Below, in pieces: positions 6,179 through 59,113 of a stretch of DNA of 64,000 nucleotides; the first letter of the stretch is position 1, and the number at the start of each line of letters is the position of its first letter. Below the pieces are notes generated by a model. It was not told the DNA's origin. It saw nothing but the letters and a program-made list of their open reading frames with translations, and made no database searches. The stretch is from Isurus oxyrinchus (taxonomy: Eukaryota): NCBI GenBank assembly GCA_026770705.1, contig JANJGN010000016.1:118234001-118298000 (forward strand). The letters run 5' to 3'. The translations under genes and the position numbers were made by a program.

Positions 6179-6317
6179 GATAAAGCAAAATACTGCAGAT
6201 GCTGGAAATCTGAAATAAAAACAGTAAATGCTGGAAAAACTCAGCAGGTCTGACAGCATCTGTGGAGACAAAGACAGAGTTAATGTTTCTAGTCCATATG
6301 ACTCTTCTTCAGAGCTT
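6179..6317 (-). mobile_element. Older Neptune-like Penelope terminal-repeat fragment with a hammerhead motif (canonical CUGAAGA core)
   Basis: - strand reads gctCTGAAGAAGAGTCatatGGACTaGAAACATTAAC. Flanking duplication attgatttatattga at 6164-6178 and 6324-6338. Confidence 0.7.
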
Positions 6318-13949: not shown

Positions 13950-14755
13950 AATTTTTTTCATATTCATTCAAGGATGTAGGCCTCGCTGGCAAGGCCAGCA
14001 TTTAATACCCACCCCTAATTGCCCTTGACAGGGTGGTAGTGAGCTGGCTTCTTAAACTGCTGCAGTCCTTGTGGTGTAGGTGCACCCACAGTTTTGTTAG
14101 GGAGGGAGTTCCAGGGTTCTGCTCCAGCAACAGTGAAGGAACGGCGATATATTTCCAAATCAGGATGATGTGTGGCTTGGAGGGGAACTCCCAGGAACTT
14201 CCGTGTGCCTCCTGTCCTTATCCTTCTAGATGGTAGAGGTTGTGGGTTTGGGTGGTGCTGTCTGAGGAGTCTCGTTGAGGTGCTGCAGTTGCTGCAGCAT
14301 CTTGTAGATGCTACACACTGCTGCCACTGTGCTTTGGTGGTGGAAGGAGTGAACGTTTGTGGATGGGGTGCCAATTAAGTGGGCTGCTTTGTCCTGGATG
14401 GTATCAAACTTCTTGAATGTTGTTGGAGCTGTACTTATCCAGGCAAGTGGAGAGTATTTCTTCACACTCCTGACTTGTGCCTTGTAGATGGTGGATAGGC
14501 TTTGGGGAGTCAGGAGGTGAGTTACTCAGTGAGGATTCCTAGCCTCTGACCTGTTCCTGTAGCCATAGTTTTTATATGACTAGTCCAGTTCAGTTTCTGG
14601 TCAATGTTAACACCCCCGGGATGTTAACAGTGGGGAATTCAGTGATGGTAATGCCATTGAATGGCAAGTGGCGATCGTTAGATTCTCTCATGTTGGAGAT
14701 GGTCATTGCCCGGCACTTGTGTGGTGCAAATGTTTCTTTCTACTTGTCAGCCCAA
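13950..14755 (-). mobile_element. CR1-like LINE 3' fragment (RT C-terminal region and 3' UTR)
   Basis: ORF 14226-14465 KYSPLAWISTAPTTFKKFDTIQDKAAHLIG; co-linear with 61795-62600. Confidence 0.8.
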
Positions 14756-15045
14756 AAATAGATGATAGAAGTGTTAAAGCCATAAAACGGCAGGTGGAGG
14801 ACAATGCATGACCTAACTGAACACAGAAACAACAATGGAAACAGAAAAGGGAAACGTTGAAAGGAAACTGACCCTCCTTGTTTCTAAGGTAACAGAAACT
14901 GAACTGAGGTTTGGAAACCAAAACCTCTGGGCAGATTGAACCTGAGTGAAAGATATGAAAGGACAAAAAGATCAATCTGAGTAGTCATTGCGGTTTGGAC
15001 CTGGTCTGTTTGCCACTCGCTGAGAGATAGCCAAAGTAAATGATA

Positions 15046-15215
15046 AAAACAAAGAGAACTGCGGATGCTGGAAATCCAAAACAAAAACAGAATTACCTGG
15101 AAAAACTCAGCAGGTCTGGCAGCATCAAGAATCAAGTTTTGTCGAAGGGTCATGAAGACTCGAAACGTCAACTCTTTTCTTCTCCGCCGATGCTGCCAGA
15201 CCTGCTGAGTTTTTT
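15046..15215. mobile_element. Young Neptune-like Penelope fold-back mini-element; left arm lacks the hammerhead, right arm has it at 15135-15173
   Basis: 14-bp TSD caaagtaaatgata at 15032-15045 and 15216-15229. Arms are near-identical to the termini of 42722-47090. Confidence 0.85.
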
Positions 15216-16149
15216 CAAAGTAAATGATAGTTAGCTAGGCCTGTGCTATAGCAGAGCAAGAAACTAACTCCATTATTCACCATGTGGAATGCAGGTAAGG
15301 CTGAATCTCAGTTTGAATTTTGTGAGGGAACTGAAGCTGGAACATTAGTTTGAAACTAGTGGAAGAATCTATATTAGTTCCCACAGAGGCAAAGATAGCA
15401 ACCCACAGATCAGCTTAGAACTATTGGAAAAGTAACCAGATCAAGGGACTGAGACATCCTCAGTCAGGAGATGGTAAATGGAAATTTTACCTTAGGGAAT
15501 AGCTGGAGCAGAGGAGAGTCTCCAGAGAACTGTGGCAAACTTATTGGATTTATGTGTTGCATTAGAGAATTCTTGGGAGAAGTAAGGAGGAAACCTGAGT
15601 GCATAACATATACGTAGTTATAAACCATATTGTTAAGCCAATAGTAGTGCTTGTTTGTTCAAGTCTTTTTTTTTAAATAAAGTTTGTGTTTTTGTTTCAA
15701 AAACATTAAATGTTGTGGAGTAATTGTATTGGTTAAAACAAGGTGTTCAGATTTCTCTTGAAATGTTAATGATCCCTAACTGGATTGTAACAAAATCTCA
15801 AACTAGAGGTGATCAATCATTTTCTGATAGTTTATTCACACTCAAAGGTTCAGCCCATCTTTGTAACCACCATTATACATTTTGAATTAATTTTGATGTT
15901 GTTTTATGCTCTTATGGCATTCTTATATTAGGAAAGACGCACCCAGATCTAATCATCTTGTTCCACTATAATTGTGTCACATTTTCTACATCCAAAATGG
16001 CTCTTTTTAGTGGCAAATACCTTTTGGTATGCATAGGTGGTTGCTTGAACTCTCTCCTTGCATCTTTACTGTACTCAGTCACTGTTTCCTCCCTTCTCAA
16101 TCATCTGCCCAAACCTATTTATCAGAAGGAAAGCAGTTTAACTAAATAA

Positions 16150-17020
16150 GTGGGGAATAATGGCCAACCCAATCAGATCATTGCTTGCTGTTTATTGCAC
16201 ATACTCATGAATGGACCAAAGACCGCCATTTATTTCTTGGACTTCAAAAGTGCCTCGTCTACCTCAGATTACCCTGGAAGGGTAAGATATTTCAAAAATT
16301 TGAGCAACAAATGAAGCTAGCAGTTTCATGCTGATACTGTGCTGGAGCAACGCAAGTGGCATTATCCACTAACAGGATGCTGCCGTCAAGCCAAAAAGTA
16401 GTTCAGCATATCACATAAATGAGTAATGCGGGATATGAATTTCAGTGCCAGTGCGATTCCAGGTGTGTAGGCCACATGTTTCAAAGACTGACGGATTGTA
16501 TCAAACTGCATATCCCTTCAGGTGTTTGCAATGGCATATTAAGCATACTCAACCAGCCCTTGCCTGCACAACTTACCATATTGAGTCTACTATTAGATGT
16601 GATTCTGCGATTGGTCAGCAGTTGTTGGACAATCCTGAGTGTGCTAAGAATTATACTAACAGTCAATTTAAGATTATCAGTCAGGTTCACAATGTGGCTC
16701 ACTTATGCTTGCTAGAAGCTACGTATATTCATATGCAGGGACCTATCCTCTGCAGACAAAAGGAACTTGTTCAGGATTGCGCCTTTTTTGAATTAAATAA
16801 AAGTCTGGGGGACAGTAGCTCTTTGGTGCATTCTCCATGGCAGCGCCTCGGCCAGAGTCGACTTGCCAACCAATCAGCACCCTTTTGTCATGCCGTATAA
16901 ATTGTTGCCACCTTTGAAATTTGGCATTCTTGCATCTGTCCTGATGAGTTCAAGAGATAAAGCTTTGACAGAAAGTCTCTTTCTTCGGCAATACTCAAGT
17001 TCTGCAATTCCAAGCAACTA
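16150..17020 (+). mobile_element. Penelope-like element 3' fragment (Poseidon-like): GIY-YIG endonuclease remnant plus hammerhead-bearing terminal repeat
   Basis: ORF 16419 SNAGYEFQCQCDSRCVGHMFQRLTDCIKLHIP is a degenerate VVY.F.C.C...YVG.T.QRL..RI..H GIY-YIG. AIGQQLLDNPEC and LEATYI follow, then tgtcCTGATGAG...AAAGCTTTGACA at ~16937-16970. Confidence 0.8.
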
Positions 17021-17115
17021 GAACTTAAAAACGAAATGAAAGTAGATAATTGTTTGTGCTTGGATATACCTTAGCTTTCATTTTTATTTTGGTAACCTGG
17101 GCAGTAAATTTAGAT

Positions 17116-17348
17116 AAAAACAAAAAAACTGCGGATGCTGGAAATCCAAAACAAAAACAGAATTACCTGGAAAAACTCAGCAGGTCTGGCAGCATCGGCG
17201 GAGAAGAAAAGAGTTGATGTTTCGAGTCCTCATGACCCTTCGACAGAACAAGTTCTGTCGAAGGGTCATGAGGACTCAAAACGTCAATTCTTTTCTTCTC
17301 CGCCGATGCTACCAGACCTGCTGAGTTTTTCCAGGTAATTCTGTTTTT
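17116..17348. mobile_element. Young Neptune-like Penelope fold-back mini-element: 98-bp near-perfect palindrome of two hammerhead-bearing arms plus a one-sided tail
   Basis: Stem 17152-17249 / 17252-17349 with a 2-nt loop. 15-bp TSD gcagtaaatttagat at 17101-17115 and 17349-17363. Confidence 0.9.
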
Positions 17349-18189
17349 GCAGTAAATTTAGATGCCCGGACTTTTCTTGTGGGCCCCAGAGGAGCTCCCC
17401 TGTTTTCATTCAAAACTTTCTTTTTGGGGCCTCCATTTCATTGCCAGGTTTCACCAAATAAAGGACTTCAATTTGCATGTGTCAGTGAAGGTATCACCTG
17501 AGTTAGGTAGGCTGTCTTAAAGAAGAACCCAGTTATGGAGGAGGCTGCGAGGAATGGTGCAGACAGTTGTTAGAGGTCATTTGAACTGTGTGGCTGCTCC
17601 ATTTTTGCCACCAGGTTAAAATCATTCTCACAATATAACTGATTACCATTCTGAAATTGAAAAGCACATTAGAAATGTGTCCTGCAGCTGAAGAAGCCTG
17701 AACAACAAAAGCATATATGCTTAATGTGAGTTTCAAATTTAGATGTAAACAATTAAATATATTTAATTAAAGGAAACCAGATGGTTAAATGGTAGCTAAT
17801 GTTTTACTAATTTATAAGATTCAGATAACTGACCCTGTTTACATGTCAGTCACGTTGTGGAATCATTCTGGGGGATTGTAGCAATGACAGGCACTGTTAA
17901 CTAATCGTACACGTATTTCAGGAGGCAATTTATATAACGGAAATTGATCCTGTAACAGATATTTAGGAATAAAAACTCCCAGAGGTTTGTTTTTTTCACC
18001 AAAGCATATAATGAAAAAACCCTAAAAAGTGCCTTAACTATGTCATCAACATGAAGTTTTCAGCAATTGGACTGAACTCCAGGGAACAGGAAAAACTAAT
18101 GCTAAAAATCATGCTTACATAAATGGCTCATTAGAAATTGTAGGCTTCAGTTGCCAAGGCCACATCTGAGACCCAACATGTCAGGAAGT

Positions 18190-23315: not shown

Positions 23316-24829
23316 TCCCCTTATTCCCATTATCTCAGTCACAGGAAAGACATTCCTAACTCCCAGTCACTTAAATTAGAACTTTCAAATTCCATCTCTC
23401 TAGTCCTCGGTCCTCCTTTTTCACCATACTTTTGCAACTGTCAATCTGTTCATTCACATTCTCACCTCCGCATTTGATGCCATTATCCCTAGCAAAGCTG
23501 CTACTCCCTCCCAACCTGGTTGCTGCCCCTGTCTGCTGCCATCACCTTTCCTGAATTAAGCTAAGAGATGCAGACATCAATGTTTATGGGTTTAGTAATT
23601 CATCTCCAGATCTGGCTGGATGTCATTGAGCACATTCAGGTCCTGCTTTCTTCTGCCAAAAATGTTTTTGTTATTCAATCTCGAATTATAGCCTCCTTCT
23701 GTGCTGTAACCATTCTATGATATGAGTCTCATTACTAGTAATCTTTTAGGAAACTGTAGAGACCTTAAAGAGGGAACAGGCTTTGTATGATTTTTAATTC
23801 CACTTTTAACTGTACTTTCTCAGAACAGTGTTATTTTTAATAGGAAGTTTATCAAAGTTCCAGCTTTTCAATTCATTTTCCTGACATAGCTGGCATTTTT
23901 TGATAATCCCTACATGCTTTTGAGAAGGTGGTGGTGAGCCGTCTCCTTGAACCACTCTACCCTATGTGGTGATGGTGCTCCCACAATGCTGTTCGACCGG
24001 TACTCTCAGGATTTTGATACAGCAGTGATGAAAAAATGGCAATATATTCCAAGTCAGATCGCCACGTGACTTGGAGATAATGATACTCCTGTGCGCCTGC
24101 TGCCCTTGTCCTTCTAGGTATTTGAGATTGTGGGTTTGGGAGATACAATTGATAAAGCCTTGACAGTTGCTGCAGTGCACTTCTCCCTGTTCCAGGATCA
24201 TCGTAGAATACAACAATTCCCAACTTCTTTTTTCCACTGCCAACCACCCACTTCATCCCTCTTTCCCATCTCTCCTATCCCTCCGCCTCCCCCCACAACA
24301 AGTACAAGAAGCACATGGACTTCTTTGCCACTAAGATTGCAACCATTTGTCCAGCTGCTTCTGCTGCTTCCCTCCCTTCCCCTAGCAAACAAAATCAAGA
24401 TTCCCCTTGCCCTAGCCCTGAACCCAAATATTCCTTTTAACTTTCTATTATCTTCCCATATTGTCCTCTCTAAGCTGGTGCTGTCTTGATGCTATTTCTA
24501 TGAAACTGCTGACCACTCAACTTATCTTCCTGGCCCCTGGGTTGGCTGATTTTAAATAGTTCTTCCTCAGCAGATACCATCCCTTTCAAATCTGCTGTCA
24601 GCAGTCCTCTCTTCAAGAAAACACCCTTGTGCTTGCAAACCACCACCCCATCACCAATGTCCCTTTCTGCCCAAAGTCCTTGTCTGTGTCATAACCTCTC
24701 AATCCATATTCATTCTCCTCTCAGCTCTACTTTTGAACCTCGCCAATCAGGTTTCCACCCCTACCACAGCTTTGAAACATTTCTAATCAAAGACACAAAT
24801 GACACCCTGTATGACAGTTCTAGTGATAT

Positions 24830-31314: not shown

Positions 31315-31430
31315 TTCTTTCAGCCTTCAGTTCTGATGAAGGGTCATGCATGTGAAATATAAATTACCTACCTTTCTCGGCACAGATGCTGACTGGCGGC
31401 GGCTGCCAATTTCCAGCATTTACAGTTTTT
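31315..31430 (+). mobile_element. Old Penelope terminal-repeat fragment with a hammerhead-like core (CTGATGAAGGGTC...GAAA); a second decayed copy at ~31630-31728
   Basis: agttCTGATGAAGGGTCatgcatgtGAAAtat followed by cacagatgctgac...ttccagcattt. Confidence 0.55.
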
Positions 31431-34400
31431 CCTCTTTAGAATGCCCAACAGGTTGTTTGATTCAGGACTCCGCTAATCTTTGACTTATAGCTAAGCAAAT
31501 GGGGCATCTTTTGAAAGGACAGTGATGACAACTTTAATTTGAAGAAGTGTGAAGGACGTTTTTTGCCCTACCGTTTGACACTGGAGATATGTTAGTCTGT
31601 AGACTGCAGGCCAGGTGCTTTGACCCACAGATGCTGAAAATACTCATTAACCTGAAATATTAACTCCATTTCCTTTCTCCTCAGATGCTGCCTGACCTCC
31701 TGAGGGTCTCCAGCACTTTTTTGCTTTGACCTGTAGGACAGCTAGCAATCTCAATATTCAATCCAATTATGCTTCGTCACCTAGCTTGTGCAAGAACTGC
31801 ACAGGATGAAAAGTAATATTCATTCAGCTGTTGTCATTGTCAAAGTGCTCCTTTGCATATTTGAGGCTGGTTTGATTGACAGCATAATTGTGTTAAACCC
31901 AAGTAAAGACAGAAGGAAGTAACCCAAATTGCAACAGTGTCACTGCAAACCTGATCAATTGAAGATTGGACTACAGGCCTTGAATAAAATTGATTGATCA
32001 TAGCTACATTATTGAATTCTTCAGAGCAGTGTCATTTTCTAAAGTGACCACCAGTTAATCAGTAGAAAAGGGGCACAAATGAAGCTTCCTTTCACTTCTG
32101 TGTGGTTTGTCTGAACCTGATAATACATGTTCTTAATCATCATAATTTCGACCTACCTTTCCAACATTGAGAAGGAACTTCCCTAAAAGGATAAAGTAGT
32201 CTTTGTCCATTGCCAGAATTACTCACTAAATACATTTCACATCAATGAAATCCTAGTGCTCCCTGTGCTTAAAAAGTACTGCAATTTCCCATATCCCACA
32301 TATTTCACTTTAAGTAGGGTCATTGGTGCCATATGCTAGGAGATGAACATTTAAAATTTCATGTACGTTGAAGCAAGAGATCAAAGGCTTTAATTTGTTC
32401 TGTGAAAGAAACTCCGCCAACTTTCTGCTTTAGAACTAGCAGGTATGTAAAAATGTTCCTACAAATACAGCATCATATATCTTTCCTAAAATTTAAGGTA
32501 TGTACAATGTCAGTTATTTGTAAGAATAAACAAGCAGCACAAGCAATCTTGAGGTTTGTGTTTTGCAATGCTTGTTTGTTATTGCCTTAAATTCAACTAG
32601 CTGCATGGTTTCAGGAAAACATTCTGTCATTGCATGTTCAGTAAGTTACATTTTGGGTCATTGAACACTAGACACAAAACTATTTTACCCAATTAAGGAT
32701 TTCAGCTGCAGGCATCACTTAAAGCGTTGATAACTTTTACAAAGGGCACATTTTGTATTTACTGTTTAAAGGCTGAACAAACTTGCACTACAGTGATATG
32801 CATCTGAACACTAATTCATTGCAAAATACTCAAAAATGATCTCCCACTAGGCCTGACAAATACTCCTGACTCACCATCATTCTAAAAAAAAAACGAATGA
32901 GCTTGCTTTGATAACGACTTTACTGCTGTCAGTTAGTCTGACTGCCTACTTAACAAACAGTCTACCATACTGAAACCTTTGGGATATTTCCTGCTATATA
33001 ATTTATGAGCGTTGTTTGTCTTCGAGAATCAGTGATACTTGATTCTTATCAAAAAATACTCTGCCTATTAAAAAGAAAGTATATAGCATTTGGTAGCTTG
33101 TTAAAAATCAAAACCCTTCAATCTTTTTAAAGACATCTGCTGGAGAATTGTACAGAAACATTGTATTTCTCTCACCATACATGGGAAGCAATTGCTTCTT
33201 CTTGAGGTATCTTTTGCCAGCTTGTGGGCCAGTAAGAATGCTATAATACTTGGCAGGTAATTGGGGATTCGAAATAACACATTCCCTTTTTTTTCTGTTA
33301 ATTTAAGTTCCTAGTGCAGCTTTGAAGAGAAAAAATCAATTTTGTATTTTTTAAGGTGGTCATTTGTAGTTTAGTTCATTCATGGGATGGCTTTCTGTAC
33401 TGTGGGTGCTATTTGTTGTCTACAGGAACATTTGGGCCAATGTAAATCAGGTTGTGAGATGATGACTGGAGTGTAAACTGCACTGGGAAACTGACTGTCA
33501 CCTTCTGCCACATATATTTATTTATATGTGCTTTTTTTTTGTATTTTCAGAATTCAAATTTCTATAGCGTTTTAAGATTATTAGCTCATTACTGCAAAGA
33601 AGGCTCACATTGCAATTTATTTATAAACACTTCATGTTGCAGATTTTCAAGGTTGATCATCAAAAGAGGGAAAGCAGTTTACTGATTCCCAAAGGATGGT
33701 GTGATGACATTAATTGCAATAACCTCATTATCTGCTTGCTTGCCTAAGCTGCGTAACAAATGATGATTGCTGTTGAAGAAGAATATTTGAATAAAATTCA
33801 GACCATAGATTGGGAGCATGCAAAAATTATACCGTTAAAATTCAAAGTTAGGATTTAACAAATTTAATGAGGCCAACGTTTGAGCGTGGAATGGCTTCCA
33901 GTAGACTGTCACAGATGGAGATACCGGATGGCCAAGACATTCAGTTTATATCAGTCAAAACCAGGGACATTTCTCACTAAACAGTTGGAGTCTTAAAACA
34001 AGGTACTTCACATCGTAGAAGAGAATTGCAGGGCATTTGCACAATAACTAACAATGGTAGGTCTGACATTATGATTATAGTGTGAATGCAGCCTGGATCC
34101 AACCTGTGCATCAGAATGGGTTCGAGCTCTGTCCCCATGGATAACACTATAAACTTGGCAACAGTGTGCAACAGTTTTAGCTCTAAACCAAAGCTATCAC
34201 TGGAGTTTTTATACTCCCACTATAGTATAAGGGTATCTGGCATAGCAAGGGTTAATGTGGGACCACCCACAGTGTGATTTAAAGAGACACATGACCTGAG
34301 ACTAGAGTCAGTTGCGGACTGGACAGAGACCTGTGTAGAAGCAAGCTTGGAGTTAGCTCAGAACCTCTGTGAGGCTTACTGAACATACAACACCCACTAA

Positions 34401-37239: not shown

Positions 37240-39990
37240 AGAATCGTAGAATGATTACAGCACAGAAGTGTCTGCATTTGAGTACCTTTTAGCCCATCGA
37301 ATCTGTGCGGGCTCTCTGCAAGAGCTATTTAGCTGATCCCGTTGACCTGTCCTTCTCCCGGGCCTTTAGCCCTGCAATTTATTTTCCCTTCAGATGCTTA
37401 TCCAATATTCTTTTGAAAGCCACAGTTGCTATGGCCTCCACCACACTCCCAGGCAGTGCATTTCCGGTCCTAACCACATGCTGGGCAAAAACTTTTTTCT
37501 CATGTTACCTTTTGGTTTTTTTGCCAAATCTGCATAACTCTGGTTCTTGACCCTTCTGCCAATGGGAACAATTTCTCCCTATCTACTCTCATGATGCACC
37601 GTGGTTTTGAACATCTCTATTTAATCGCCTCTTCACCTTTTCTTCTCCCAGGAGAACAACCCCAGATTTTCCAACATAAAGTTAAAACAGAAAATGCAGG
37701 TCTGGCAGCATCTGTGGAGAGAGAGAGAAACACAGAGTTAACGTTTCAGGTCCAACATGGTTCTTCTTTGGAACTGGAGCTTTTTCCAGCATTTTCTGTT
37801 TTTTAATTTCAGATTTCCAGCAGCCGCAGTATTTTGTTTTGCCTTCCAGATTTTTCCGAACTTTCCAGGTAACCAAAGCCCCTCTTCCCTGGAACCTCAT
37901 GACGTTTTTCCTGCATCCACTCTAAAGCCTTCGCACCCTTCCTAAAAGTTGGTGCTAAGAATTGGACAAAATAGTCCAGTTGAGGCTGAACCACTGTTTT
38001 ATAAAGATTCATCATAACTTCCTTGTTCTGGTACCCTGTGCCTTTATTTATAAAGCCCATGTGCTTTTTAAACCGCTTTCTCAACCTGCCTTTCTGCCCT
38101 TCAACAACTTGTGCACATATATCACAGAATTGTTCCAGTGCAGAGGGAGGCCATTCAGCCCATCGTGTCTGTACTGGCTCTCCAAGTGTCATTCCCCTGC
38201 CTTCTCCCCATAACCCTGCACATTCCTTAATAACAGTCTAATTCCCTTTTGAATGCTTCAATTAAACCTGCTTCCACCACACTTTCAGGTAGTGCATTCC
38301 AGACCTTAACCATTCACTGCAATAAAACATTTTTTCTCATATCGCTTTTGCTTCTTTTGCCAATTACTTTAAATCTGTGCCCTTTTGTTCTCGATCCTTT
38401 CAGGAGAGGAAACCGTTTCTCCCTCCCTATCTACTCTGCCCAGAATCCTCATGATTTTGAAGAGCTCTATCAAATTTCCTCTCAGTCTTTTCTCCAAGGA
38501 AAACAGTCCCAACTTTTCCAATGCATCTTCATAGTTGTAGTTCCTCATCCCTGGAACCATTCTCGTGAATCTTTTCTGTACTTTCTCCAATGCCCACAGG
38601 TGTATTCCTGCACCTACTTTAGAATTGTGCCCTTTAGTTCCTATTATCTCTCCTTGGTCTTGCTACCAAAACACATCTTTTCTCATTTCTCCATGTTAAA
38701 TTCCATTTGCCACCTGCCTGCCCATTTCACTAGCCTGTCCACATCCTCCTGGAGTCCATCACTCTCCTCCTCACAGTTCACAATATTCCAAGTTTTGTGT
38801 CATCTCCAGTTTCGCTTTGCGCCCTGTACACCCAATTCAAAGTCATTAATATATAACAACAGAGCAATGATCCTACTGTATATGTCCCTTCAACCTGAAA
38901 AGCTATTCACGGCTACTCCCTGTACTCTGTTTCCTGTCACTCATTCAATTTTGTACCCATGCTCCCATTGTCTCTTTTATTCCATGGGCTTCAATTTTGT
39001 TGACAAATCTATTACATGGCACTTTAACAAAAACCTTTTGGAAGTCCACCACACCACATCAACTCATTTCCCTGATCAACCCTCTGTTACCTCAATCAAA
39101 AAGTTCAATCAAGTTAAACACAATTTGCCTTTAACAAATCCATGCTGGTTCTCCTTAATTAATCCACACTTGTCCAAGCGATTTTAATTTTGTCCCAGAT
39201 TATTGTTTCTAAAAGGTTTCACACCGCTGAGGTTAAAATGACTACTGTGCAGTTGCTGAGTTTATCCTCACACCCTTTCTTGAACAAGGATACAGCATTT
39301 GCAATTCTTTAGTCCCCTAGCATTCGTCCCCGTACCTAAGGATCTAGAGAGGTTGGAAGCTTATGGCTAGTAACGCCACAATTTCCACCTTACTATCCTT
39401 GGATGCATCCCATTCAGAAGAGGTGACTTAACAACTTTTAAGAACAGCCAGCCTTTCTATTACTCCCTCTATCAATTTTTTAGCCCATCTAGCATCTCAA
39501 CTACCTCCTCATTCACTATGACTTCAGCAGCATCTTCTTCCTTGTAAAGACAGATACAAAATACTCATTTAGTACCTCAGTCAAACCTGCTGCCTCCATG
39601 TTCAAATCCCCTTTTTGGTCCCTAATCAGTCCCAACACTCCTCACACTTAACGTTTATTATTTATATGGAAGAGTATTGTATTACCTTTCATGCTATCTG
39701 CCAGTCTCTTTTCACACTGTCTCTTTGTCTCTCTTATTTTCTTCTTCACGTCTGAATTTTCTGTATTCAGCCCACTCTCACTTCTATAATTAACCTGACT
39801 TTGGTCATTGTGTTTCTGTTTCATCTTACTCCCTATCTCTTTCATCATCCAGGGAGCTCTGCCTTTGGTTGCTCTCCCTTTCTCCCTTGTGGGTATGCAC
39901 CTCGACTAGACTTGAACTGTCTTTTCTTTAAAGGCAGCCTATTGTTCCGTCAGCTTTCCCTATCAATCTTTGATTGCAAGTTATCCACTG
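37240..39990 (-). mobile_element. Nested CR1 LINE fragments in the last KCNT2 intron, with a small Penelope-derived insert at ~37677-37841
   Basis: ORF 38369-38590 EKVQKRFTRMVPGMRNYNYEDALEKLGLFSLEKRLRGNLIE. The + strand shows atccatgctgg (QHGF antisense) at 39138. Two CR1 3' ends are present. Confidence 0.8.
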
Positions 39991-42260: not shown

Positions 42261-42824
42261 AAAGAAAAGCAGATAAAATATAATATAAACTATGGTATAA
42301 ATATTAAAAAAGGAAAACTATTAAAACAGTTTTCTACAGCTTATATGGTTGATTGAGTAAAAGACATCAGACTATATGGTACTGAGTCATAGAGGTCAAA
42401 ACATCCCAGGTGACATTCCTGACAGAAAAACTGTTATAACTTTCTCATACCTTTGTGCATAAACAGTATGGTACAATACTGAACCAGTCAGACCTGCAAA
42501 TCCTGTGTTAGTAGTGCATTAACTGATCTCAGCAAACACACTCATTTCAATAGTTAATTAACTGTACTGGTCCTAGATCACAGAGGGCAAATTAGCTAGG
42601 ATGTGTCTGCTGATGAATTGTCCGGTAATCCACTTGGAAAGCACCATCACTTGTATCCCAGCTGGAAACAGAATTGGATTTGGATGTGATGTTCTCATTA
42701 GTTGAATAACCTATTGATTATAGAGATAAAAACAAAAAAAACTGCGGATGCTGGAAATTCAAAACAAAAACAGAATTACCTGGAAAAACTCAGCAGGTCT
42801 GGCAGCATCAATGGAGAAGAAAAG

Positions 42825-42863
42825 AGTTGACGTTTCGAGTCCTCATGACCCTTCAACAGAACT
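42825..42863 (-). ncRNA. Minimal type I hammerhead ribozyme-like motif in the PLE terminal repeat (variant core CUGUUGA)
   Basis: agtt-CTGTTGA-A-GGGTC atgag GACTC-GAAA-CG-TC-aact: helix I agtt/aact, 5-bp helix II, loop-less palindromic ACGU helix III, GUC cleavage triplet. Confidence 0.7.
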
Positions 42864-43224
42864 GAGTGAATATTAGGAGAGGGGGGGAAATATAAGCTGG
42901 TTTAAGGTGAGGGGGGTGGGGGGGGTGGTGGGTGGGGGGTAGGGACAAGCAAGCAGTGATAGGAGCAGATAATCAAAAGATGTCACAGACAGAAGAATAA
43001 AGAGGTGTTGAAGGTGGTGATATTATCTAAATGAATGTGCTAATTAAGAGTGGATGACAAGGTACAGTTCTAGTGTGGTGGGGTGGAAAGGCTAACAGGG
43101 CATAAAAGATATAGATTTAAAAATAATGGAAAAATAGGTGGGAAAAGAAAAATCTATATAATTTATTGGAAAAAACAAAAGGAAGGGGGAAACAGAAAGG
43201 GGGTGGGGATGGAGGAGGGAGCTC

Positions 43225-45505
43225 AAGACCTAAAGTTGTTGAATTCAATATTCAGTCCGGAAGGCTGTAAAGTGCCTAGTTGGAAGATAAGGTGTTGTTC
43301 CTCCAGTTTGCGTTGGGCTTCACTGGAAAATGCAGCAAGCCAAGGACAGACATGTGGGCAAGAGAGCAGGGTGGAGTGTTAAAATGGCAAGCGACAGGGA
43401 GGTTTGGGTCATTCTTGCGGTCAGACCGCAGGTGTTCTGCAAAGCGGTCGCCCAGTTTACGTTTGGTCTCTCCAATGTAGAGGAGACTACATTGGGAGCA
43501 ATGAATGCAGTAGACTAAGTTGGGGGAAATGCAATTGAAATGCTGCTTCACTTGAAAGGAGTGTTTGGGCCCTTGGACGGTGAGGAGAGAGGAAGTGAAG
43601 GGGCAGGTGTTGCATCATTTGCGTGGGCATGGGGTGGTGCCATAGGTGGGAGTTGAGGAGTAGGGAGTGATGGAGGAGTGGACCAGGGTGTCCTGGAGGG
43701 AAAGATCCTTACGGAATGCCACCAGGGGGGGTGAAGGGAAGATGAGTTTGGTGGTGGCATCACGCTGGAGTTGGCGGAAATGGCAGAGGATGATCCTTTC
43801 AGTGCGGAGGCTGGTGGGGTGATAAGTGAGGACAAGGGGGACCCTATCATGTTTCTGGGAGGGAGGAGAAGGCGTGAGGGCGGATGTACAGGAGATGGGC
43901 CAGACATGATTGAGGACCCTGTCAACGACCATGGGTGGAAAACCTTGGTTAAGGAAGGAGGAGGACATGTTAGAGGAACCGTTTTTGAAGGTAGCAACAT
44001 CAGAACAGATGCGACGGAGGCGAAGGAACTGGGAGAATGGGATGGAGTCCTTACAGAATGCAGGGTGTGAGAAGCTGTAGTTGTGGGAGTCGGTAGGCTT
44101 GTAATGGATATTGGTGGATAGTCTATCACCAGAGATTGAGACAGAGAGGTCAAGGAAGGGGAGGAAAGTGTCAGAGATGGACCATGTGAAAATGATGGAG
44201 GGGTGGAGATTGGAAGCAAAATTAATAAATTTTTCCAGGTCCCGACGAGAGCATGAAGCAGCACCGAAGTAATCATCGATGTACCGGAGAAAGATTTGTG
44301 GAAGGGGGCCGGAGTAGGACTGGAACAAGGAATGTTCCACATACCCCATAAAGAGACAGGCATAGCTGGGGCCCATGCGGGTACCCATAGCCACACCTTT
44401 TATTTGGAGGAAGTGAGAGGAGTTGAAGGACAAATTGTTCAACGTGAGAACAAGTTCAGCCAGACGGAGGAGAGTAGTGGTGGATGGATTGTTCGGGCCT
44501 CTGTTTGAGGAAGAAGCTAAGGGCCCTCAGACCATCCTGCTGGGGGCTGGAGATGTAGAGGGATTGGATGTCCATGGTGAAGAGGAAGTGGTTGGGACCA
44601 GGGAACTGGAAATTGTTGATGTGACGTAAGGTGTCAGAGGAATCATGGATGTAGGTGGGAAGGGACTGGACAAGGGGAGAGAGAAGGGAGTCAAGATAAT
44701 GAGAAATGAGTTCCCTGGGGCAGGAACAGGCTGACACGATCGGTCTACCGAGACAGTTTTGTTTGTGGATTTTGGGTAGGAGGTAGAAGCGGGCCGTCCG
44801 AGGTTGGGCGACTATCAGGTTGGAAGCTGTGGGAGGAAGATCTCCAGAGGAGATGAGGTCAGTTACAGTCCTGGAAACAATGGCTTGATGTTCAGTGGTG
44901 GGATCATGGTCCAGGGAGAGGTAGGAGGAAGTGTCTGCGAGTTGACGCTCAGCCTCCGTGAGGTGGTGGTCAGTGCGCCAGACCACAACAGCACCACCCT
45001 TGTCAGCAGGTTTGATGACAATGTTGGAGTTGGACCTGAGAAAACGGAGTGCAGTAAGTTCAGAGAGACAGAGAGAGAGAGAGATTAGAATGGGTGAGAG
45101 GAGCAGAGAAATTGAGATGACTAATGTCGCGCCGACAGTTCTCAATGAAAAGATCCAGAGAAGGTAAGAATCCAGAGGGAGGGGTCCAGGTGGAGGGAGA
45201 ATATTGGAGGTGGGTGAAAGGATCTGTTGAACGGGGAGAGGACCCCTGCCCAAAGAAGTGATGAAGGCAGCGGAAGAAGAGTTCAGCATCATGCAGAGCC
45301 CAAAATTCATTGAGATGAGGGCGTAAGAGTATGAAACTAAGTCCTTTGCTGAGCACTGAACGTTCAGCATCGGAGAGGGGAAGGTCAGGGGGTATAGTGA
45401 ATACACGGCTGGGGCTGGGGTTGGAAGATGGGGTGGGGACGGAGGGACAGGCAGGGGTGGAGGGACCTAGATGGGTGTTGGTGTCGATGAGTTGTTGGAG
45501 CTTGC
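43225..45505 (-). pseudogene. PLE reverse transcriptase plus GIY-YIG endonuclease ORF, 5'-truncated and frameshifted
   Basis: Split across track ORFs 45060-45548, 44456-45406, 43615-44442 and 43276-43551. Confidence 0.9.
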
Positions 45506-45509
45506 ATTC

Positions 45510-46630
45510 CATTCCTTGTTCCAGTCCTACTCCGGCCCCCTTCCACAACTCTTTCTCCGGTACATCGATGATTACTTCGGTGCTGCTTCATGCTCTCGTC
45601 GGTACCTGGAAAAATTTATTAATTTTGCTTCCAATCTCCACCCCTCCATCATTTTCATGTGGTCCATCTCTGACACTTCCCTCCCCTTTCTTGACCTCTC
45701 TGTCTCAATCTCTGGTGATAGACTGTCCACCAATATCCATTACAAACCCACCGACTCCCACAGCTACCTCGACTACAGCTCCTCACACCCCGCTTCCTGT
45801 AAGGACTCCATCCCATTCTCTCAGTTCCTTCGCCTCCGTCGCATCTGTTCTGATGATGCTACCTTCAAAAACAGTTCCTCTGACATGTCCTCCTCCTTCC
45901 TTAACCGAGGTTTTCCACCCATGATCGTTGACAGGGCCCTCAATCATGTCCGGCCCATCTCCCGCGCATCCGCCCTCATGCCTTCTCCTCCCTCCCAGAA
46001 ACATGATAGGGTCCCCCTTGTCCTCACTTATCACCCCACCAGCCTCCGCACTGAAAGGATCATCCTCCGCCATTTCTGCCAACTCCAGCATGATGCCACC
46101 ACCAAACGCATCTTCCCTTCACCCCCCCTGGCGGCATTCCGTAGGGATCATTCCCTCCAGGACACCCTGGTCCACTCCTCCATCACCCCCTACTCCTCAA
46201 CCCCCACCTATGGCATCTCCCCATGCCCACGCAAAAGATGCAACACCTGCCCCTTCACTTCCTCTCTCCTCACCGTCCAAGGGCCCAAACACTCCTTTCA
46301 AGTGAAGCAGCATTTCACTTGCATTTCCCCCAACTTAGTCTACTGCATTTGTTGCTCCCAATGTGGTCTCCTCTACATTGGAGAGACCAAACGTAAACTG
46401 GGTGACTGTTTTGCAGAACACCTGCGGTCTGTCCGCAAGAAAGACCCAAACCTCCCTGTCGCTTGCCATTTTAACACTCCACCCTGCTCTCTTGCCCACA
46501 TGTCTGTCCTTGGCTTGCTGCATTTTCCAGTGAAGCTCAACGCAAACTGGAGGAACAGCACCTCATCTTCTGACTAGGCACTTTACAGCCTTCTGGACTG
46601 AATATTGAATTCAATAACTTTAGATCTTGA
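45510..46630 (+). pseudogene. Inverted second copy of the PLE ORF 3' half (RT C-terminus, thumb, GIY-YIG), open for ~340 codons and then frameshifted
   Basis: Track ORF 45471-46577. The canonical end SEAQRKLEEQHLIF.LGTLQPSGLNIEFNNFRS* lies in another frame after cattttccag at ~46521. Confidence 0.9.
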
Positions 46631-46993
46631 ACTCCCTCCTCCATCCCCACCCACTTTCCGTTTCTTCCTCCTTCCTTTTGTTTTTTCCAATAATTTATAT
46701 AGTTTTTTCTTTTCCCACCTATTTCCATTATTTTTAAATCTTTTATGCACTGTTAGCCTTTCCACCCCACCCCCACTAGAGCTATACCTTGAGTGTCCTG
46801 CCATCCATTCTTAATTAGCACATTCGTTTAGATAATATCACCACCTTCAACACCTCTTGGTCTTCTGTCTGTGACATCTTTTGATTATCTGCTCCTATCA
46901 CTGCTTGCTTGTCCCTACAACCACCCCCCCTCCCCCCCACCCCCGCGCCACCTTAAAACAGCTTATATTTCACCCCTCTCCTAATATTCTCTC

Positions 46994-47032
46994 AGTCCTG
47001 TTGAAGGGTCATGAGGACTCGAAACGTCAACT
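46994..47032 (+). ncRNA. Minimal type I hammerhead ribozyme-like motif in the inverted PLE terminal repeat (variant core CUGUUGA)
   Basis: agtcCTGTTGAAGGGTCatgagGACTCGAAACGTCaact. Confidence 0.7.
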
Positions 47033-48364
47033 CTTCTTCTCCGCCGATGCTGCCAGACCTGCTGAGTTTTTCCAGGTAATTCTGTTTTTGTAATCTATTG
47101 ATCATTCATGTTTAAGCTCATTCATGACGGATGGTCACGTAGATAAGGAAAAATAGGACTGCTGTTAACCCTGGAACCTTACCCAAGAAAAGGGTGGATT
47201 ATTTTAGAACAAATTCTTGTTCTTTTTAAATCCATTTCAATAGATGTGGTATAGAATGCACTCTATCGGATTGGACAGAATTGGAAAGTGCTGATTTAAG
47301 ATGCACAATATTGTTTACTGGTTTTTCCTGAATATTAACTGTTGTGTGCAGCTTCCAAGATCTACGTATTTTCCACAAATGATCTTTGAAAAAATCCTAA
47401 TGGCATCCTGACAGAATATTCCAGGAATGGCAGGATAGTATATTGTACAATCATCAGCAAAACTGCTCAGGAAGAGGGGGAAGATTTACTTATTTTCCAC
47501 AAATCCATAAGCAGACAATGTGATGACATGAATTGTAAAGGAAGATTTGCCACTTCCACGCAAAGACGTCACACGTTGGCAATGTAATCTAAAAAAGGAA
47601 AGCAGTGGTAAGCTTGCTCATCCTTGAAAACCGCAGGATGGGAGTTCAGTCGGAATTTACAGATGAGTAATGCCAAAGCTTTGATATAGGGATTGAATAA
47701 TGAGATGAACTAAAATCAGGGATGTTCAGGAGTTTCACATGTTTGTCTTCAATGTGGTTGGGTGCCAGGATGAAGGGCAATGGGAATGATGGAGAAAATT
47801 CACTTGTGTAGCACCATTTTCAGTGGGTATGGGCAGCATTTCGGGTCTAAAATGGCATCCGCAGTGTGAAATTTTTGTAAGGGCATAATTGCAGGAATGA
47901 GGAGTACATGCTGAAGTATGCAGATTAGGCAGTTTGTCATGCTAATCTGCATGTAATGATGATTTGAAGTCAGCAGAGCTATTTCCAACCCGAATGCACC
48001 AACTATTAACCCTCTCTTAACCTGGCAAACTGAATATGTATTCAGCAATAGGGCCCATTTTGCATTCAAATGCATTCAAAGCATTCAGTAACATCATTTG
48101 ACATTATAAGGTATAATTTGGAACAAGTTTTTATAGCAGAAATAGTCATCATTTGCCATCAAAAGTGCTCGTGTCACATTTTAACATCATCTTGATTCCT
48201 TTTGATCACTCCTGATTACTTCAGGAGTTATCAAAGTACTCAGAAGCATTCAAAAAGCAATCACAGCTTTGGTAAATTTGGGAAAGCAATAATTAGCTTT
48301 CAGAGGTGAGCATTAGTGTTCAAAGTGCTTTCAAAGACATTTACTTGCACTCCAAAAGCATTGC

Positions 48365-50130: not shown

Positions 50131-53100
50131 GGCTGCAGAATGCAAAACGATATCAACATTTTTCAGAAGGGAAAGACACCCCACCAGTATTATTTAAAGG
50201 GATCATCAGCTACTTTCAGGTTAGTTGCTACCGGTTGTTGCTAAGTTAGTGGAAGTGTTTGGTGATATGTAATGCTCCTTAAAGTTGGTGAATAAAGAAT
50301 GGTATGGCACATGCTGAGGGTCTTGATTCTGACTTCAATGGTTCTGCTCAGACCACGTTCTCCCAGGCATAGCTGCAATAGTTTGTATGCTACTTGTTCT
50401 GCAGCATGCAAAGGGAGAATGGGGGCGAATGAGCAGAGGTGACACATAAGCTACATGAAGAGGAAGGTGGAGAAGGAAGAGATGGGTTCTCAATAGGGGG
50501 CCACAACTGCTCAGGATCCTCAGAGAGCAATTCTCATGTAGCAACTTCAGTGAGGAACAGTGCGTCAAATGTCTGTGCTTCACCAAGGAGATGCTCACTG
50601 TCACCTGCCACTGAAATTTGCATCCTTCAAAGTGTAACCTCAGAGCAGGACAAGTTCCATTGAAGATGTAATAAGGTGACCATTCCCATAAACCTTTATG
50701 CATCTGGCTCCTTTCAGGCTGGACCAGGCAATATTTGCCATATTTCCCAGTTTGCTGTCCACTGTTGCACAAGGGAGGTCACTTAAGTCCATGTGTTACA
50801 AGAGAGCTGAATATATTTCATTATCCTTTACCAGAAAGAAGCAAGCACACACCTTTACCATATTAGTGGGCGGTCACCGCGGTGCCATTGACTGCATACA
50901 CATTGTGGATGCCGCATCTAAATTCAGAGATCTACCACAAGCGCAAAGGGTTCCACACCCTCAGTGTGCAGCAGTTGTGTCCATGCTCAATGCAACATAC
51001 TGGCATCAGTCATAATGCCTTCTTTCTGTGGCAGTCAGCTGTACCATCCGTATTTGAGCTACTATAATAAACTAGAGGGTGGCTGCTGGGTGACAGGAGC
51101 TATCTACTGATCACCTGGCTCATGACTCTGTACACAACTCACATGTGGCAGCATGCATGTGAGAGCCATGCTGTCACTTGAAGTGTGATTGAGCAGACAT
51201 TTGGGGTGCCTAACCAATGCTGCTTCTGCTGCATGGAGCGCTCTAGAGGAGCTCCACAGCACTCAGAGCTCATGTCATGATTCATTGTGGTCTGTTGCAT
51301 GCCGCATTACCTCACAGTCATGAAGGAACAATCCTTAGGATGAGGTATTCGTTGAGAAGCTGAGGAGGAGGAGGCGGTGAGGATGAGGAACAAGAGAGGA
51401 AGCGGGAGGAGGCAAACAAAATCTCTCCTTTCTGGCTAAGCTATCAGTGATCAACTCGTCTGACTGTGGTTATCAGTGAAGGCAACCACAATAACCCATT
51501 CAGCAACAGTCACACATCCACTCACTCTCACAATGTCTACAAGGCTGGAATAAAAGACACCACAGGACAAACGTTCCAAAACAGCTTTACAAATCAAATC
51601 ATCCAAGATTCCAAGAAGTCAATTAATCACTTTCTTGCAATCCTTTAATTTCAGTCTTCCATGTAGATTGCTCAGTATCCCAGCAAATGCAGCACAGTCG
51701 GTGAACATTGCTGAGTCCAGTGAGACATGGCAGATGGTCCTGCAAGATGACCTCGAGCAAGCCCGGAATGTCTGGCTACGGACCGCACAAACGTGTCAGA
51801 CTGGGCTAGCTGACTGACAGGCAACATCAAGGATATTGGTGGTAGTGATGAGAGGACAACAAGTTTGTGCACCACGGAGCTCTTGTCATTCCCTCAGAGC
51901 TGTGCTTCAGCTGTCCTAGCAATGTGTTAAAGGACAGGTTACTGGACTGCTGTGAGACCCTGCAAGCCCCTTTGCACACTGGTATCTGCAGCTTGTGTGG
52001 CAGAAAGCCGAGATTGCACGAGCGCAGTTTGAACTTCCACTGGGACGTGAGAAGGAGAAGTAGGTACGAGTGTATGGTTTCAGCCCTGCTTTTACCTTTC
52101 ACCTTACTCGTTCCAATGATGGTGGGCGTTGTCTCCTCTATGTGGTAGGGGCATGCAGCCATGCCTGCTCCCTGCTGCATGTGGTTATGTGCCGCATTAT
52201 CCTGCAAAAGGGTTGAGTGTCAGTGAATGTGGTGCAAAGTGTTTGGCTGATGTGGCTGTCAGTGTTGAATAGTTGGCAGTGTGTGAAAGCTGTGGAATTG
52301 AGTGCCAAGTGTGAGGGTGAGGTGAAGCTATGAATGCGAGGTGTGACTCATGATTGATAGAGTGAAGTCGGGATGCAGTAGATTGAACAGGTTTTGAGGC
52401 TACGCCTGCAGTTGTTAGGATATGGCATTTGAAGATACATTCATTGCGACCTTGTAAGGTTATTGAGCCTTTTATGGGACTGCATCCAAATTCTTGGGGC
52501 TGGTCACCTGGCATTGACTGCCATGGATAGCTGGTCCCACTGCCCTTTCGCAGTTTGCCAGTAGGGCTCCCTGCATATAGATAGCCGCTCTCCTCCTCTA
52601 CACCTTCTCGACTCAGGCCTCCAGTGCTAGATTTGAAAACCTGACAGCTGGTTCTCTGCCATGCTGATCTAAAATTCAGTGTTCCTCTTGCTCACACTCT
52701 TCAGCAACCCCTGTTCTAGCCAGGATGCATCTAACCTTTAAGAAGTGCAGGTTGGCCATCTTTTAAAAATTCATTCATGGGATGTGAGCATTGCTGGCAA
52801 TTCACATGCAGGCCACACCGGTAAGGACAGCTGATTCCCTTCCCTAAAGGACATTAGTGAACCAGATGGGGTTTTATGAAATTCCAATAGTTTAAGGAAC
52901 ACCACTACTTTTTATTCCAGATTTATTTGATTAACTTAATCTGCAGGAACTAACCAAGGCTCTTTAGACAGCACCTTACACAACAAAGACTACTACCATC
53001 TAGAAGGACAAGGGCAGCAGATAGATGGGAACACCGCCACCCAGAAGTTCCCCTCTAAGTCACTCACCACCCTGACTTGGAAACATATCATCGTTCCTTC

Positions 53101-53526
53101 ACTGTCGCTGGTTCCTGGAACTCCCTCCCTAACAGCACATGGACTGCAGCGGTTCAAGGCACCACGTTCTCAAGCTCACCACCACCTTCTCAAGGGCAAT
53201 TAGGGATGGGCAATAAATACTGGCCTAGTCAGCGAAGCTCACATCCCATGAATGAATAAAAAAAAAAAATCCCCCAGCTGCCATGGTGAAATCTGAACTC
53301 ATGCCTCTGAAGTAGAATAACTCTAAATGGTGCTCACCTCAATTTTGTGCCCCCTGCTCAGGCATGAAGACACTCAACCGCACGGCTGCCACTGCCCACT
53401 ACAATCATTTAAAGGAGTTGGCATCATGAAGTTTACATGCTGCCTACAGCAAAAGCAACCAGCACAGGTTAATTGCGCATTGTAATTCTCACTCCCATTT
53501 TCTGGCTTTAATCAGATTTTGCAGCC
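50131..53526. mobile_element. Decayed autonomous PIF/Harbinger transposon: DDE transposase pseudogene (+, ~50480-51330) and convergent Myb/SANT ORF remnant (-, ~51700-52680)
   Basis: Frame-broken motifs LYASGSFQ, GAIDCIHI, KGFHTLSVQQLC, GWLLGDRSY..TWLMT, VIEQTFG. Candidate termini ggctgcagaat / attttgcagcc, with no TSD recovered. Confidence 0.8.
52765..53310 (-). mobile_element. SINE of the 890-1285 family, interrupted by a + strand CR1-like LINE 3' end (~52940-53269)
   Basis: ttccctaaaggacattagtgaaccagatggg matches 1065-1097. The LINE tail ends catgaatgaataaaaaaaaaaaa. Confidence 0.7.
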
Positions 53527-56589: not shown

Positions 56590-58300
56590 ATTGCATTGAG
56601 TTACATCAAGCCTGCAGCACAAAAGCAGGCCATTCAACCCAACTGATATATGCTGGCATTTCTGCTCCACATGCTCCACCCCTCTTCAGGGGTAATCCTA
56701 TCAGTATATCTTCTATTCCCTTTTCTTTCATTTGTTTATTTAGCTTCCCTTTAAATGCATCTATGCTAACTACAACTACACCTTACAGCAGTGTGTTCCA
56801 GATTCTAACACTCTGGATAAAAGAAGATTCCCCTGTTTAATTTATTAGTGAACGTTTTACATTTAGGTTCAGTACAAAGGGTTGGGCATATGGAGTTGAG
56901 GCCGAATATCTGGATGGATAGCAAACTGGCTAAAAAAGAGAAAACCTTTTAAAAAACAGAAAGCAGAGAGTAGGGATAAAGAATAGTTCTTCCGATTGGA
57001 GAAAGGTAGAAGGCAATTCTCCACAAGGATCAGTGTAAGGACCACTGTTATTCTTTATATATTAATAATTTACACTTAGAAACAAGTTATTCAATAAGTT
57101 TGGACATGATTATCAAACTGGGGGAAATAGCTAACCCTAAAAAGAATGCAACATAATACAAGACAACATTAGAAATCCTGCCGACTGGGTAGTTAAGTAA
57201 AAAATTAACTTTAATGTAGGTAAATGTGAGGTGATGCACTTAGTTGGAAAAATAGAAGCATCAACTATACCTTAGAAAATAAGTAACTGAGTGGATAGAG
57301 GAACAAGGGGCTCTAGAGATACATCTGAACACATCATTAAAAGCAGCATTGCAGCTTGGCAAAGCAATTAAAATGCTAACAAAACACTAGGGATATGGAA
57401 TTCAAAAGTAGTGAAGTTATACTACATGAGAGAAAAAGGAATCAGAAGATATGTTGAAAGACTGAGATGGATTGAGAGAGAGGAGACGCATGTAGAGTAT
57501 AAACACCGGCACAGGCTGGTTGGGCCAAATCGCCTGATTTTGTGCTGCATGTTCTATATAATTCTAAGACCTGCGGTGTTGGACTCTCCCACTAGTGCAA
57601 ACATTTTCGTCACATTTACCCTATCAAACTCTTTTGTTATCTTAAAGACCTGTTAACCTTCTCAGGAGCTTCAGACTGTTCAACCTATCCTGTTCAGTAT
57701 ATCCTCTCAGTGATTGTATCATTCTTGCGAATCCTTTTTGCACCTTTTCCAATGCCTCTATACCTCTTTTTTTTTTAAAATATGGACATCAGATTTGAGT
57801 TCTGTGGAAGGGTCATGAGGACTCAAAAATGTCAACTCTTTTCTTCTCCGCCAATGCTGCCAGACCTGCTGAGTTTTTCCACTAATTCTGTTTTTGTATC
57901 AGATTTGTACACTGTTCTCCAAATGTGGCCTAATCAAGGTTTGACACAAGTTTAGCATACTATTTGTGCTCATTAATTCTATCCCTCTAAAATGAGCCAC
58001 AGTGCTTTGCTTCCTTTTTTGATGATCTTACTTACATACCTACTCTTAGTGATTTGTGAATGTGTACCCCTAGATCTCTTTACTCATGTATCCCATTCAG
58101 ACCCCAACCAATATATGGCTTCCTTAATCTTCTTACCAAAATGCACCATCCCACACTGTTCTTACTGGAAATCATTTGTCGACTACATGTCCATTCTTAA
58201 GTTTTCCCGCATTTTGTTGCATCATCTTCTCTGTTAATTACACCTCTTAAATTCGTGTCATCCACAAATTATGAAATTGAACTTCTGATTCCCAAATCCA
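56590..58300. mobile_element. Cluster of old CR1 fragments on both strands
   Basis: PQGSV.GPLLF-like text at 57021 (+). CR1 3' ends and antisense RT remnants at 56590-56850 and 57560-58300. Confidence 0.6.
57798..57897 (+). mobile_element. Single-arm copy of the young Penelope hammerhead repeat
   Basis: Begins at agttctgtggaagggtcatgaggactc. 10-bp TSD atcagatttg at 57788-57797 and 57898-57907. Confidence 0.85.
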
Positions 58301-58985: not shown

Positions 58986-59113
58986 GGGTGGAAATTTATG
59001 ACCCCACCTGCCAAAGGGATCATCCAGCCCCACCGAAATTGAATGGACTTTTGGCTGGTAGGCAGAATCTCCCATGATGGTTCCCAAAACAACGGAACTG
59101 GAAAATCCAGGCC
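58986..59113. mobile_element. 128-bp Harbinger-type MITE inserted at the CR1 ORF2 start
   Basis: Ends gggtggaaattt / aaaatccaggcc with TSD TTT. Removing it restores ttaaagtttctttatctgaatactcgcagcatt (LKFLYLNTRSI). Confidence 0.7.

Follow-up and report, generated by a model that had tools for sequence, protein, structure and literature searches.

The short fold-back insertions in the window (the whole analysed stretch of 64,000 nucleotides) are probably the shortest class of ordinary head-to-head insertions of a Penelope-like element (PLE), remade at each insertion by two primed cDNAs that are joined back to back. They are not a new mobile family, being ordinary in kind and a known footprint of PLEs. 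The origin of the inverted and tandem structures of PLEs was called undefined in 2021 (PMC8557442), and these stubs provide a large natural data set on how such structures arise. The quantified end pairing, arm asymmetry and pile-up of 5' ends at position +1 add testable detail to this open mechanism. Specifically, self-priming fits the strict end pairing and the arm asymmetry less well than two primed cDNAs do, and the pile-up predicts a strong-stop cDNA and a capped transcript that starts some 30 nt downstream of a TATA-like box. For repeat annotators, the stubs are not to be split off as a MITE or retrozyme family.

Genome sample and numbering

The sample consisted of 100 stretches (1,047,037 bases). 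Besides the window itself it took in 4 stretches next to it, 34 at even spacing, and 61 selected because they surround exact arm matches, all within the first 3.3 Mb of contig C1. Among 186 parsed arms, 168 had a core at least 85% identical, and 163 were left after 5 at stretch edges had been dropped. The 30 best DNA matches were excluded from every count because they had been selected for likeness to the query. Arms are numbered from +1, the A that opens helix I of the hammerhead motif (17251, 60022 and 57798 in the window).

Short insertions in the window

The near-perfect palindromes and the single arm described in the earlier note are real features of the window sequence, and each insertion has, as claimed, its own target site duplication (TSD). 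The palindrome at 17116-17348 lies between two 15-bp TSD copies (17101-17115 and 17349-17363). It is composed of a tailed (L) pseudo-LTR arm on the minus strand (17116-17249, about +140 to +2) and a tail-less (S) arm on the plus strand (17250-17348, 0/+1 to +99, with +1 at 17251); the arms 17152-17249 and 17252-17349 are complementary at 94 of 98 positions, and the predicted fold of 17116-17348 is far stronger than that of shuffled sequence (z -25.65). When two DNA-like runs were aligned to 14700-17800, the right junction of this element was bridged by one contig, and no empty site was found among the joints listed. The second palindrome (59921-60159, 97/101 complementary) has its S arm on the minus strand (59921-60021, +101 to +1) and its L arm on the plus strand (60022-60159, +1 to +139), with a 14-bp TSD at 59907-59920 and 60160-60173. 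The deleted palindrome at 15046-15215, also with a 14-bp TSD (15032-15045 and 15216-15229), retains an L arm cut at +53 (15046-15128, minus strand) and an arm from about -3/+1 to about +82 (15132-15215, plus strand). The insertion at 57798-57897 is a single S arm on the plus strand that begins exactly at +1 and is flanked by a 10-bp TSD (57788-57797 and 57898-57907).

Nine arms of the Penelope arm family are present in the window. Older arm relatives, 72-80% identical, are located at 6187-6317 (minus strand), 31327-31440, 31669-31737, 37696-37840 and 61675-61755. The one at 37696-37840 is an old head-to-head pair; a canonical core (CUGAAGA/CUGAUGA) is preserved in the relatives at 6187-6317 and 31327, which start at about the same +1 position. 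The window also contains a second dispersed repeat family that is unrelated to the arm, with copies 60-90% identical to one another at 881-960, 2679-2824, 13961-14764, 23877-24140, 52941-53269, 59104-59520 and 61793-62603.

The parent element

The arms of all the short insertions match the 3' end of the PLE at 42722-47091 with 90-97% identity. The match on which the earlier note had based the origin of the arms thus stands, but this PLE is itself a head-to-head insertion with one tailed and one tail-less arm, both longer, whose 3' ends point outward. Its tailed arm (42722-45500, minus strand) belongs to a 5'-truncated Neptune/Nematis-type PLE with a broken RT-GIY-YIG frame and has its 5' end at -2636, and the tail-less arm (45510-47091, plus strand) has its 5' end at -1470; the TSD is 8 bp when exact and 12 bp with one mismatch. 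A TATA-like box, TATATTT, is found at 46964-46970 on the plus strand, 30 nt upstream of +1 (46994), and another at 42888-42894 on the minus strand in the left arm, whose +1 (42863) follows 31 nt downstream. Both are putative promoter elements, and TATATTT is at most TATA-like as a candidate promoter box.

A Pfam search of the four broken ORF fragments in the window gave no match. A natural full-length copy of the parent (L155, G000:C1:516580-520050) encodes an ORF of 918 amino acids with matches to RVT_1 (E 3e-6) and GIY-YIG (E 0.002), both under the curated cut-offs. The ORF starts about 35 nt past the tail and has a C-x4-C-x2-C linker upstream of the GIY-YIG motif. Since a CX2-5CxxC linker before the endonuclease marks Neptune/Nematis-type elements (PMC8557442), the parent was assigned to this type. 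A pseudo-LTR formed by partial tandem, an inverted 5'-truncated copy and a one-sided 30-40-bp tail are all present. Judged from its sequence, the parent is an abundant EN+ PLE of the Neptune/Nematis type: the genome contains 105,604 exact matches to a 37-nt arm word and at least 2,881 to the tail-ORF junction, and near-symmetric apices at +1 number at least 3,610 (2,979 + 631 exact matches). Arm density is uneven: the evenly spaced stretches hold 19 arms in 340 kb, and the initial 3.45 Mb of C1 contains 100 exact matches. The arm and the ORF are covered by contigs of runs mostly guessed to be RNA, which carry no information on start, strand or level.

Head-to-head pairs

Among 48 head-to-head pairs in the sample, 46 combined one S end (about +100-105) with one L end (about +134-140; binomial p 4e-12), and all 20 further apices had one long and one shorter end. 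By size, 23 pairs were short on both sides (137-445 nt), 21 were long on both sides and 4 were mixed. TSDs of 12-19 bp, with a mode of 14-15, flanked 44 of the 48 pairs irrespective of arm length; random controls gave a TSD of at least 9 bp in 28 of 400 cases. The same TSD length and the same end pairing in long and short pairs indicate one process. Tail-less single arms with TSDs also occur.

The two arms of a pair often differ in 5' reach. Of 46 pairs, 20 have an S arm that outreaches the L arm at the 5' side by more than 8 nt, some of them by hundreds of bases; in 11 the L arm extends further, and in 15 the arms agree within 8 nt. Both arm ends fall within 12 nt of each other in 6 of the 21 long pairs (0.7 expected), as a single RNA end would lead one to expect. 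In 45 pairs, 29 variants were common to both arms of one insertion (6.3 in shuffled pairs), including 10 non-CpG variants (0.6 shuffled). The shared variants and the coincident ends of long pairs together point to one RNA template. Central deletions after insertion could mimic the arm asymmetry, and gene conversion could mimic the shared variants.

Several composite copies were observed besides these pairs. In L219, L229 and L166/L167, both arms of a head-to-head structure run through the tail-ORF junction, up to near full length on each side. In L081, L082 and L154, a +1 palindrome is followed directly by the ORF start and then by a second arm from +1, and the hairpin thus caps copies that bear the ORF. 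At L105:4942-5386, two arms ending at +1 are separated by 194 nt of unrelated DNA and enclosed by one 14-bp TSD.

Relation of the hairpins to longer insertions

The earlier note had weighed two origins for the hairpins, a non-autonomous, RNA-mobilised hairpin element and a highly stereotyped truncation product. The former, in which the whole palindrome would be transcribed and reinserted as a unit, is largely refuted in this sample and now appears highly improbable. It would agree with the shared location of at least 3,610 near-symmetric apices and with the recurrence of some apex types, namely TA (9), TTGAA (7), a single T (6) and TTGATCAA (5) among the first 50 apices of the main subfamily. 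However, these 50 comprise 23 types (hand count), and the additional letters at an apex match the upstream sequence of the PLE subfamily concerned. In 20 copies of the four recurrent types, variants shared by the arms were found in 9, but copies with a common apex type did not have the same ones; G22A is present in more than one apex type as well as in ORF-bearing copies. Comparison of 68 short with 69 long arms revealed no diagnostic site (smallest Fisher p 0.021 of 17 sites), and divergence was alike (2.1% and 2.5%, respectively). The short arms formed no clade of their own when 113 arms were placed in a tree of low resolution, which required 21 label changes compared with 24.7 after shuffling (p 0.07). 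The 23 short pairs include 20 distinct junction pairs, and no four-arm structure was found in the 1,047,037 bases. A MITE-like family with one master was rejected given the 23 apex types in 50 and the lengths of 137-445, and equal terminal inverted repeats of the MITE kind were rejected because 46 of 48 pairs have the tail at one end only. The truncation reading of the earlier note, on the other hand, is supported, with the hairpins as the shortest class of ordinary head-to-head PLE insertions. That note had named continuously scattered apices and a lack of palindrome-specific mutations as the marks of such insertions. Palindrome-specific mutations are indeed lacking, and the 5' ends are scattered as described below, except for a strong peak.

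Distribution of 5' ends

The 5' ends of the 163 arms range from +68 to -3189 and thus cover the whole 3.3-kb element. Nevertheless, 45 of them fall at -7 to +4, a density of 3.75 per nt compared with 0.003-0.27 per nt upstream; another 37 lie at +5 to +70. BLAST ends close to an apex are uncertain by about 6 nt. The peak comprised 36 of 118 arms at a stricter identity cut-off and 7 of 19 arms in the 34 evenly spaced stretches alone, and 8 of the 25 older diverged arms among those listed begin at 0 to +4. Contig joints from two other DNA-like runs fell at +1 (17251) in 7 of the 15 listed, with seven different partner positions. The 3' ends are bimodal, S near +100-105 and L near +134-140.

A TATA-like box lies at -26 to -32, mostly -29 to -32, among the rows listed from subfamilies with divergent spacers. 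Most subfamilies read pyrimidines and then AG at +1/+2, and +1 lies in an initiator-like context. Together, the box 29-32 nt above +1 and this context suggest +1 as the likely transcript start. The hammerhead begins at this very position, with helix I having its first base exactly there.

The behaviour of ORF-linked copies is different. Of 75 copies found with the tail-ORF junction, 2 had no arm and were dropped; among the remaining 73, 7 end at -4 to +2, 18 end downstream and 48 continue seamlessly upstream past -10. In the general sample, 45 of 126 stopped at +1, whereas the rate for cDNAs crossing the ORF start was 7 of 55 (Fisher p 0.0013). Since ORF-crossing cDNAs mostly pass +1, this position is not the only template end; templates must commonly be circular or longer than one unit, or cDNAs must often jump from +1 into the 3' pseudo-LTR. 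BLAST placed 6 of 14 same-strand jump junctions at -4 to +1, but two of these carry 17-21 nt of upstream sequence, which leaves 4 of 14, a number too small to carry weight. In 17 full-length copies, the 5' and 3' pseudo-LTRs share 26 variants (6.2 in shuffled data); these are largely subfamily markers, so circle, strand transfer and tandem master are not separable by them. Three internally deleted copies of about 1.2 kb (L163, L197 and L218, near 3.73, 51.08 and 78.03 Mb of G000:C1) exit the ORF at the same point, about 957 nt past the tail, and resume in the pseudo-LTR at three positions (about -16, +1 and +2), a recurrent internal RNA end or jump site.

The hammerhead motif

Each arm had been said to carry a minimal hammerhead. 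The skeleton is present, but the core of the family is CUGUCGA or CUGUUGA instead of CUGANGA, and the left arm of the palindrome at 15046 (+53 to +139) is without any hammerhead. An Rfam search at E<=1 returned no hammerhead and only generic hairpin matches below gathering scores. With a relaxed descriptor, 148 motifs had helices I and II, the GAAA box and the NUH site in order. Their cores were CUGUCGA or CUGUUGA in 141, CUGCUGA in 3, CUGUGGA in 2 and canonical in 2 (older copies). Core position 6 was U in 143 and C in 3 of the 148, at variance with C3U4G5A6NG8A9. The arms in the window have further changes in the core or the GAAA box; for example, the skeleton at 17251-17289 (plus strand) in the S arm 17250-17348 combines a U6 core with an altered GAAA box. 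The isolated motif has no stable predicted fold (z about +0.5). The A6C change strongly lowers Mg-dependent cleavage (PMC7151607), and A6U was not found in the accessible part of that source. The hammerhead in the Penelope arms is likely weak or idle. As for the proposal that a transcript of either strand would pair a ribozyme with its own antisense, the motif would indeed be locked in the predicted duplex, but its core is non-canonical.

Cleavage was also rejected as the origin of the fixed end: the end lies 35 nt upstream of the predicted cut, and none of 118 young 5' ends fell around the cut at +33 to +39. The core at 60026-60032 (CUGCUGA) has the letters of an A6C variant reported to prefer Mn (PMC7151607); it is probably a chance change in one copy.

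Proposed mechanism and alternatives

The arm orientation, with a cDNA start at each flank, implies that each nicked strand primes, and the TSDs suggest a staggered cut with 3' overhangs. In the mechanism we favour, the cut would leave 3' overhangs of about 14-15 nt, and both nicked target strands would prime cDNA synthesis on one Penelope RNA, one nick using a start site near +100 and the other a site near +139. The two cDNAs would likely run off the RNA 5' end at +1, a transcript start presumably set by the TATA-like box and initiator. The first 100-140 letters of the element RNA would thereby be copied twice, once from either cut end, and the copies linked back to back, probably by microhomology. 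The resulting stubs have no TATA-like box upstream and are predicted to be dead ends. There is biochemical precedent in an anole PLE protein, which in vitro cuts and extends both strands, uses two internal RNA start sites bounding the tail, has been modelled as a dimer and needs no hammerhead cleavage, uncleaved RNA serving as template (PMC11167929).

The dual-primed reading has to be weighed against self-priming, in which a single cDNA would turn back at the apex and serve as its own template; cleavage would afterwards produce the tail-less end, and later central deletions would blur the apex. This model was proposed for PLE inverted repeats from palindromes at their junctions (PMC3846280). 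It accounts for the shared variants and the symmetric apices, and one subfamily has a small natural palindrome around +1. However, under this model the tail-less arm should never extend beyond the tailed one in the 5' direction. It does so in 20 of 46 pairs, an outcome that simple fold-back of a tail-initiated cDNA cannot produce; moreover, the tail-less single arms with TSDs mark the S site as a start in its own right, as also seen in vitro (PMC11167929). We therefore regard self-priming as very unlikely. Somewhat less remote, but still doubtful, is that the templates are short +1 transcripts of 3' or solo pseudo-LTRs (SINE-like single-arm RNA) used in trans in place of ORF-bearing RNA, which would be compatible with twin priming. 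The higher +1 stop rate of arm-initiated than of ORF-crossing cDNAs agrees with such a source, and pseudo-LTR sequences are enough for mobilisation in trans in a rotifer (PMC3846280); the TATA-like box also appears to be retained in tens of thousands of arms. Against it, the anole protein needs template ORF sequence downstream of the tail (PMC11167929), shared variants are not commoner in short than in long pairs (8 and 21 of those listed, the overlaps of short pairs being shorter), and at least 2,881 copies with the tail-ORF junction are available as sources.

A further alternative alters one step only: +1, at the 5' border of the hammerhead fold, might be where the reverse transcriptase pauses, or a splice-acceptor-like AG, and not an RNA end. 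The coincidence of +1 with the first base of helix I and the many cDNAs that pass +1 would fit. In D. virilis an intron extends up to the 5' boundary of helix I (PMC4209133), here pyrimidines are followed by AG in most subfamilies, and the Penelope promoter of that species is an internal one that has no TATA box and whose start lies well ahead of the hammerhead (PMC2377424); for these reasons a pause or splice-related site stays a rival. However, the spacing of the TATA-like box (-29 to -32) is constant over divergent spacers, one of them purine-rich, and the isolated motif does not form a stable predicted fold. A pause would also be expected equally in both cDNA sets, yet their +1 stop rates differ. 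No recurrent upstream exon occurred in the junctions seen, on which ground splicing as the cause of the +1 end was rejected. On balance, a pause or splice-related site is unlikely, though less so than the two preceding alternatives.

Under dual priming, circular, tandem or strand-transferred templates are needed besides run-off at +1. In retroviruses, a short cDNA known as minus-strand strong-stop DNA is made when synthesis runs to the 5' end of the RNA. By analogy, we tentatively raise the possibility, which the balance of evidence does not yet favour, that Penelope copying is LTR-like: putative strong-stop cDNAs of 100 and 139 nt would be made from the 5' pseudo-LTR to +1 and jump by homology to the 3' pseudo-LTR. 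The stubs would then be failed jumps, and a palindrome two strong-stop cDNAs from one protein dimer. If true, the jump would regenerate the promoter and give seamless partial tandems. In the literature covered, neither hairpin stubs of this kind nor PLE products of strong-stop synthesis or strand transfer were found described, and the interpretation of the +1 pile-up as putative strong-stop cDNA with failed strand transfer may be new.

Comparison with known systems

In L1 twin priming, two primed cDNAs are joined by microhomology and the second primer lands internally; here, both cDNAs start at fixed sites on the 3' side. Head-to-head, 5'-truncated inverted pseudo-LTR copies with a one-sided tail are standard for EN+ PLEs (PMC8557442, PMC3846280), and the present element resembles Pen2a of Adineta vaga (PMC3846280), Penelope of D. 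virilis (PMC2377424) and the general scheme (PMC8557442) in its inverted 5'-truncated copy, one-sided 30-40-bp tail, TSD and partial tandems. A pseudo-LTR with TATA plus an Inr-like motif and palindromes at the inverted junction are likewise as in published EN+ PLEs (PMC3846280, PMC8557442, PMC2377424). Beyond the published insertions, the copy number here permits statistics, which reveal the strict pairing of end types, the 14-15-bp TSD and the sharp +1 peak; the arm asymmetry argues against the self-priming model of PMC3846280.

Two internal start sites bounding the tail, cutting and extension of both strands, and an uncleaved RNA template are features that the proposed mechanism has in common with anole Poseidon PAc (PMC11167929). 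PAc belongs to Penelope/Poseidon and its ORF starts inside the hammerhead, whereas the ORF here begins past the tail and encodes a CX4CxxC linker; events at the RNA 5' end were left unresolved in the accessible text of the PAc study (PMC11167929). The motif is similar to the minimal type-I hammerheads of metazoan PLEs in its short helix I, the bulged base before helix II and the near absence of helix III (PMC4209133). Unlike those, core position 6 is U here, in keeping with the 141 CUGUCGA or CUGUUGA cores among 148. Dual hammerhead motifs 100-700 bp apart on opposite strands, together with many single motifs, were reported in 2014 (PMC4209133). The stubs also resemble non-LTR retrozymes in being non-coding, pseudo-LTR-derived, hammerhead-bearing and of similar size (bioRxiv 10.64898/2026.07.22.740005). 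Retrozymes, however, are head-to-tail tandems with a hammerhead per unit, and identity with them was rejected because the insertions here are head-to-head pairs or single stubs with variable junctions (bioRxiv 10.64898/2026.07.22.740005).
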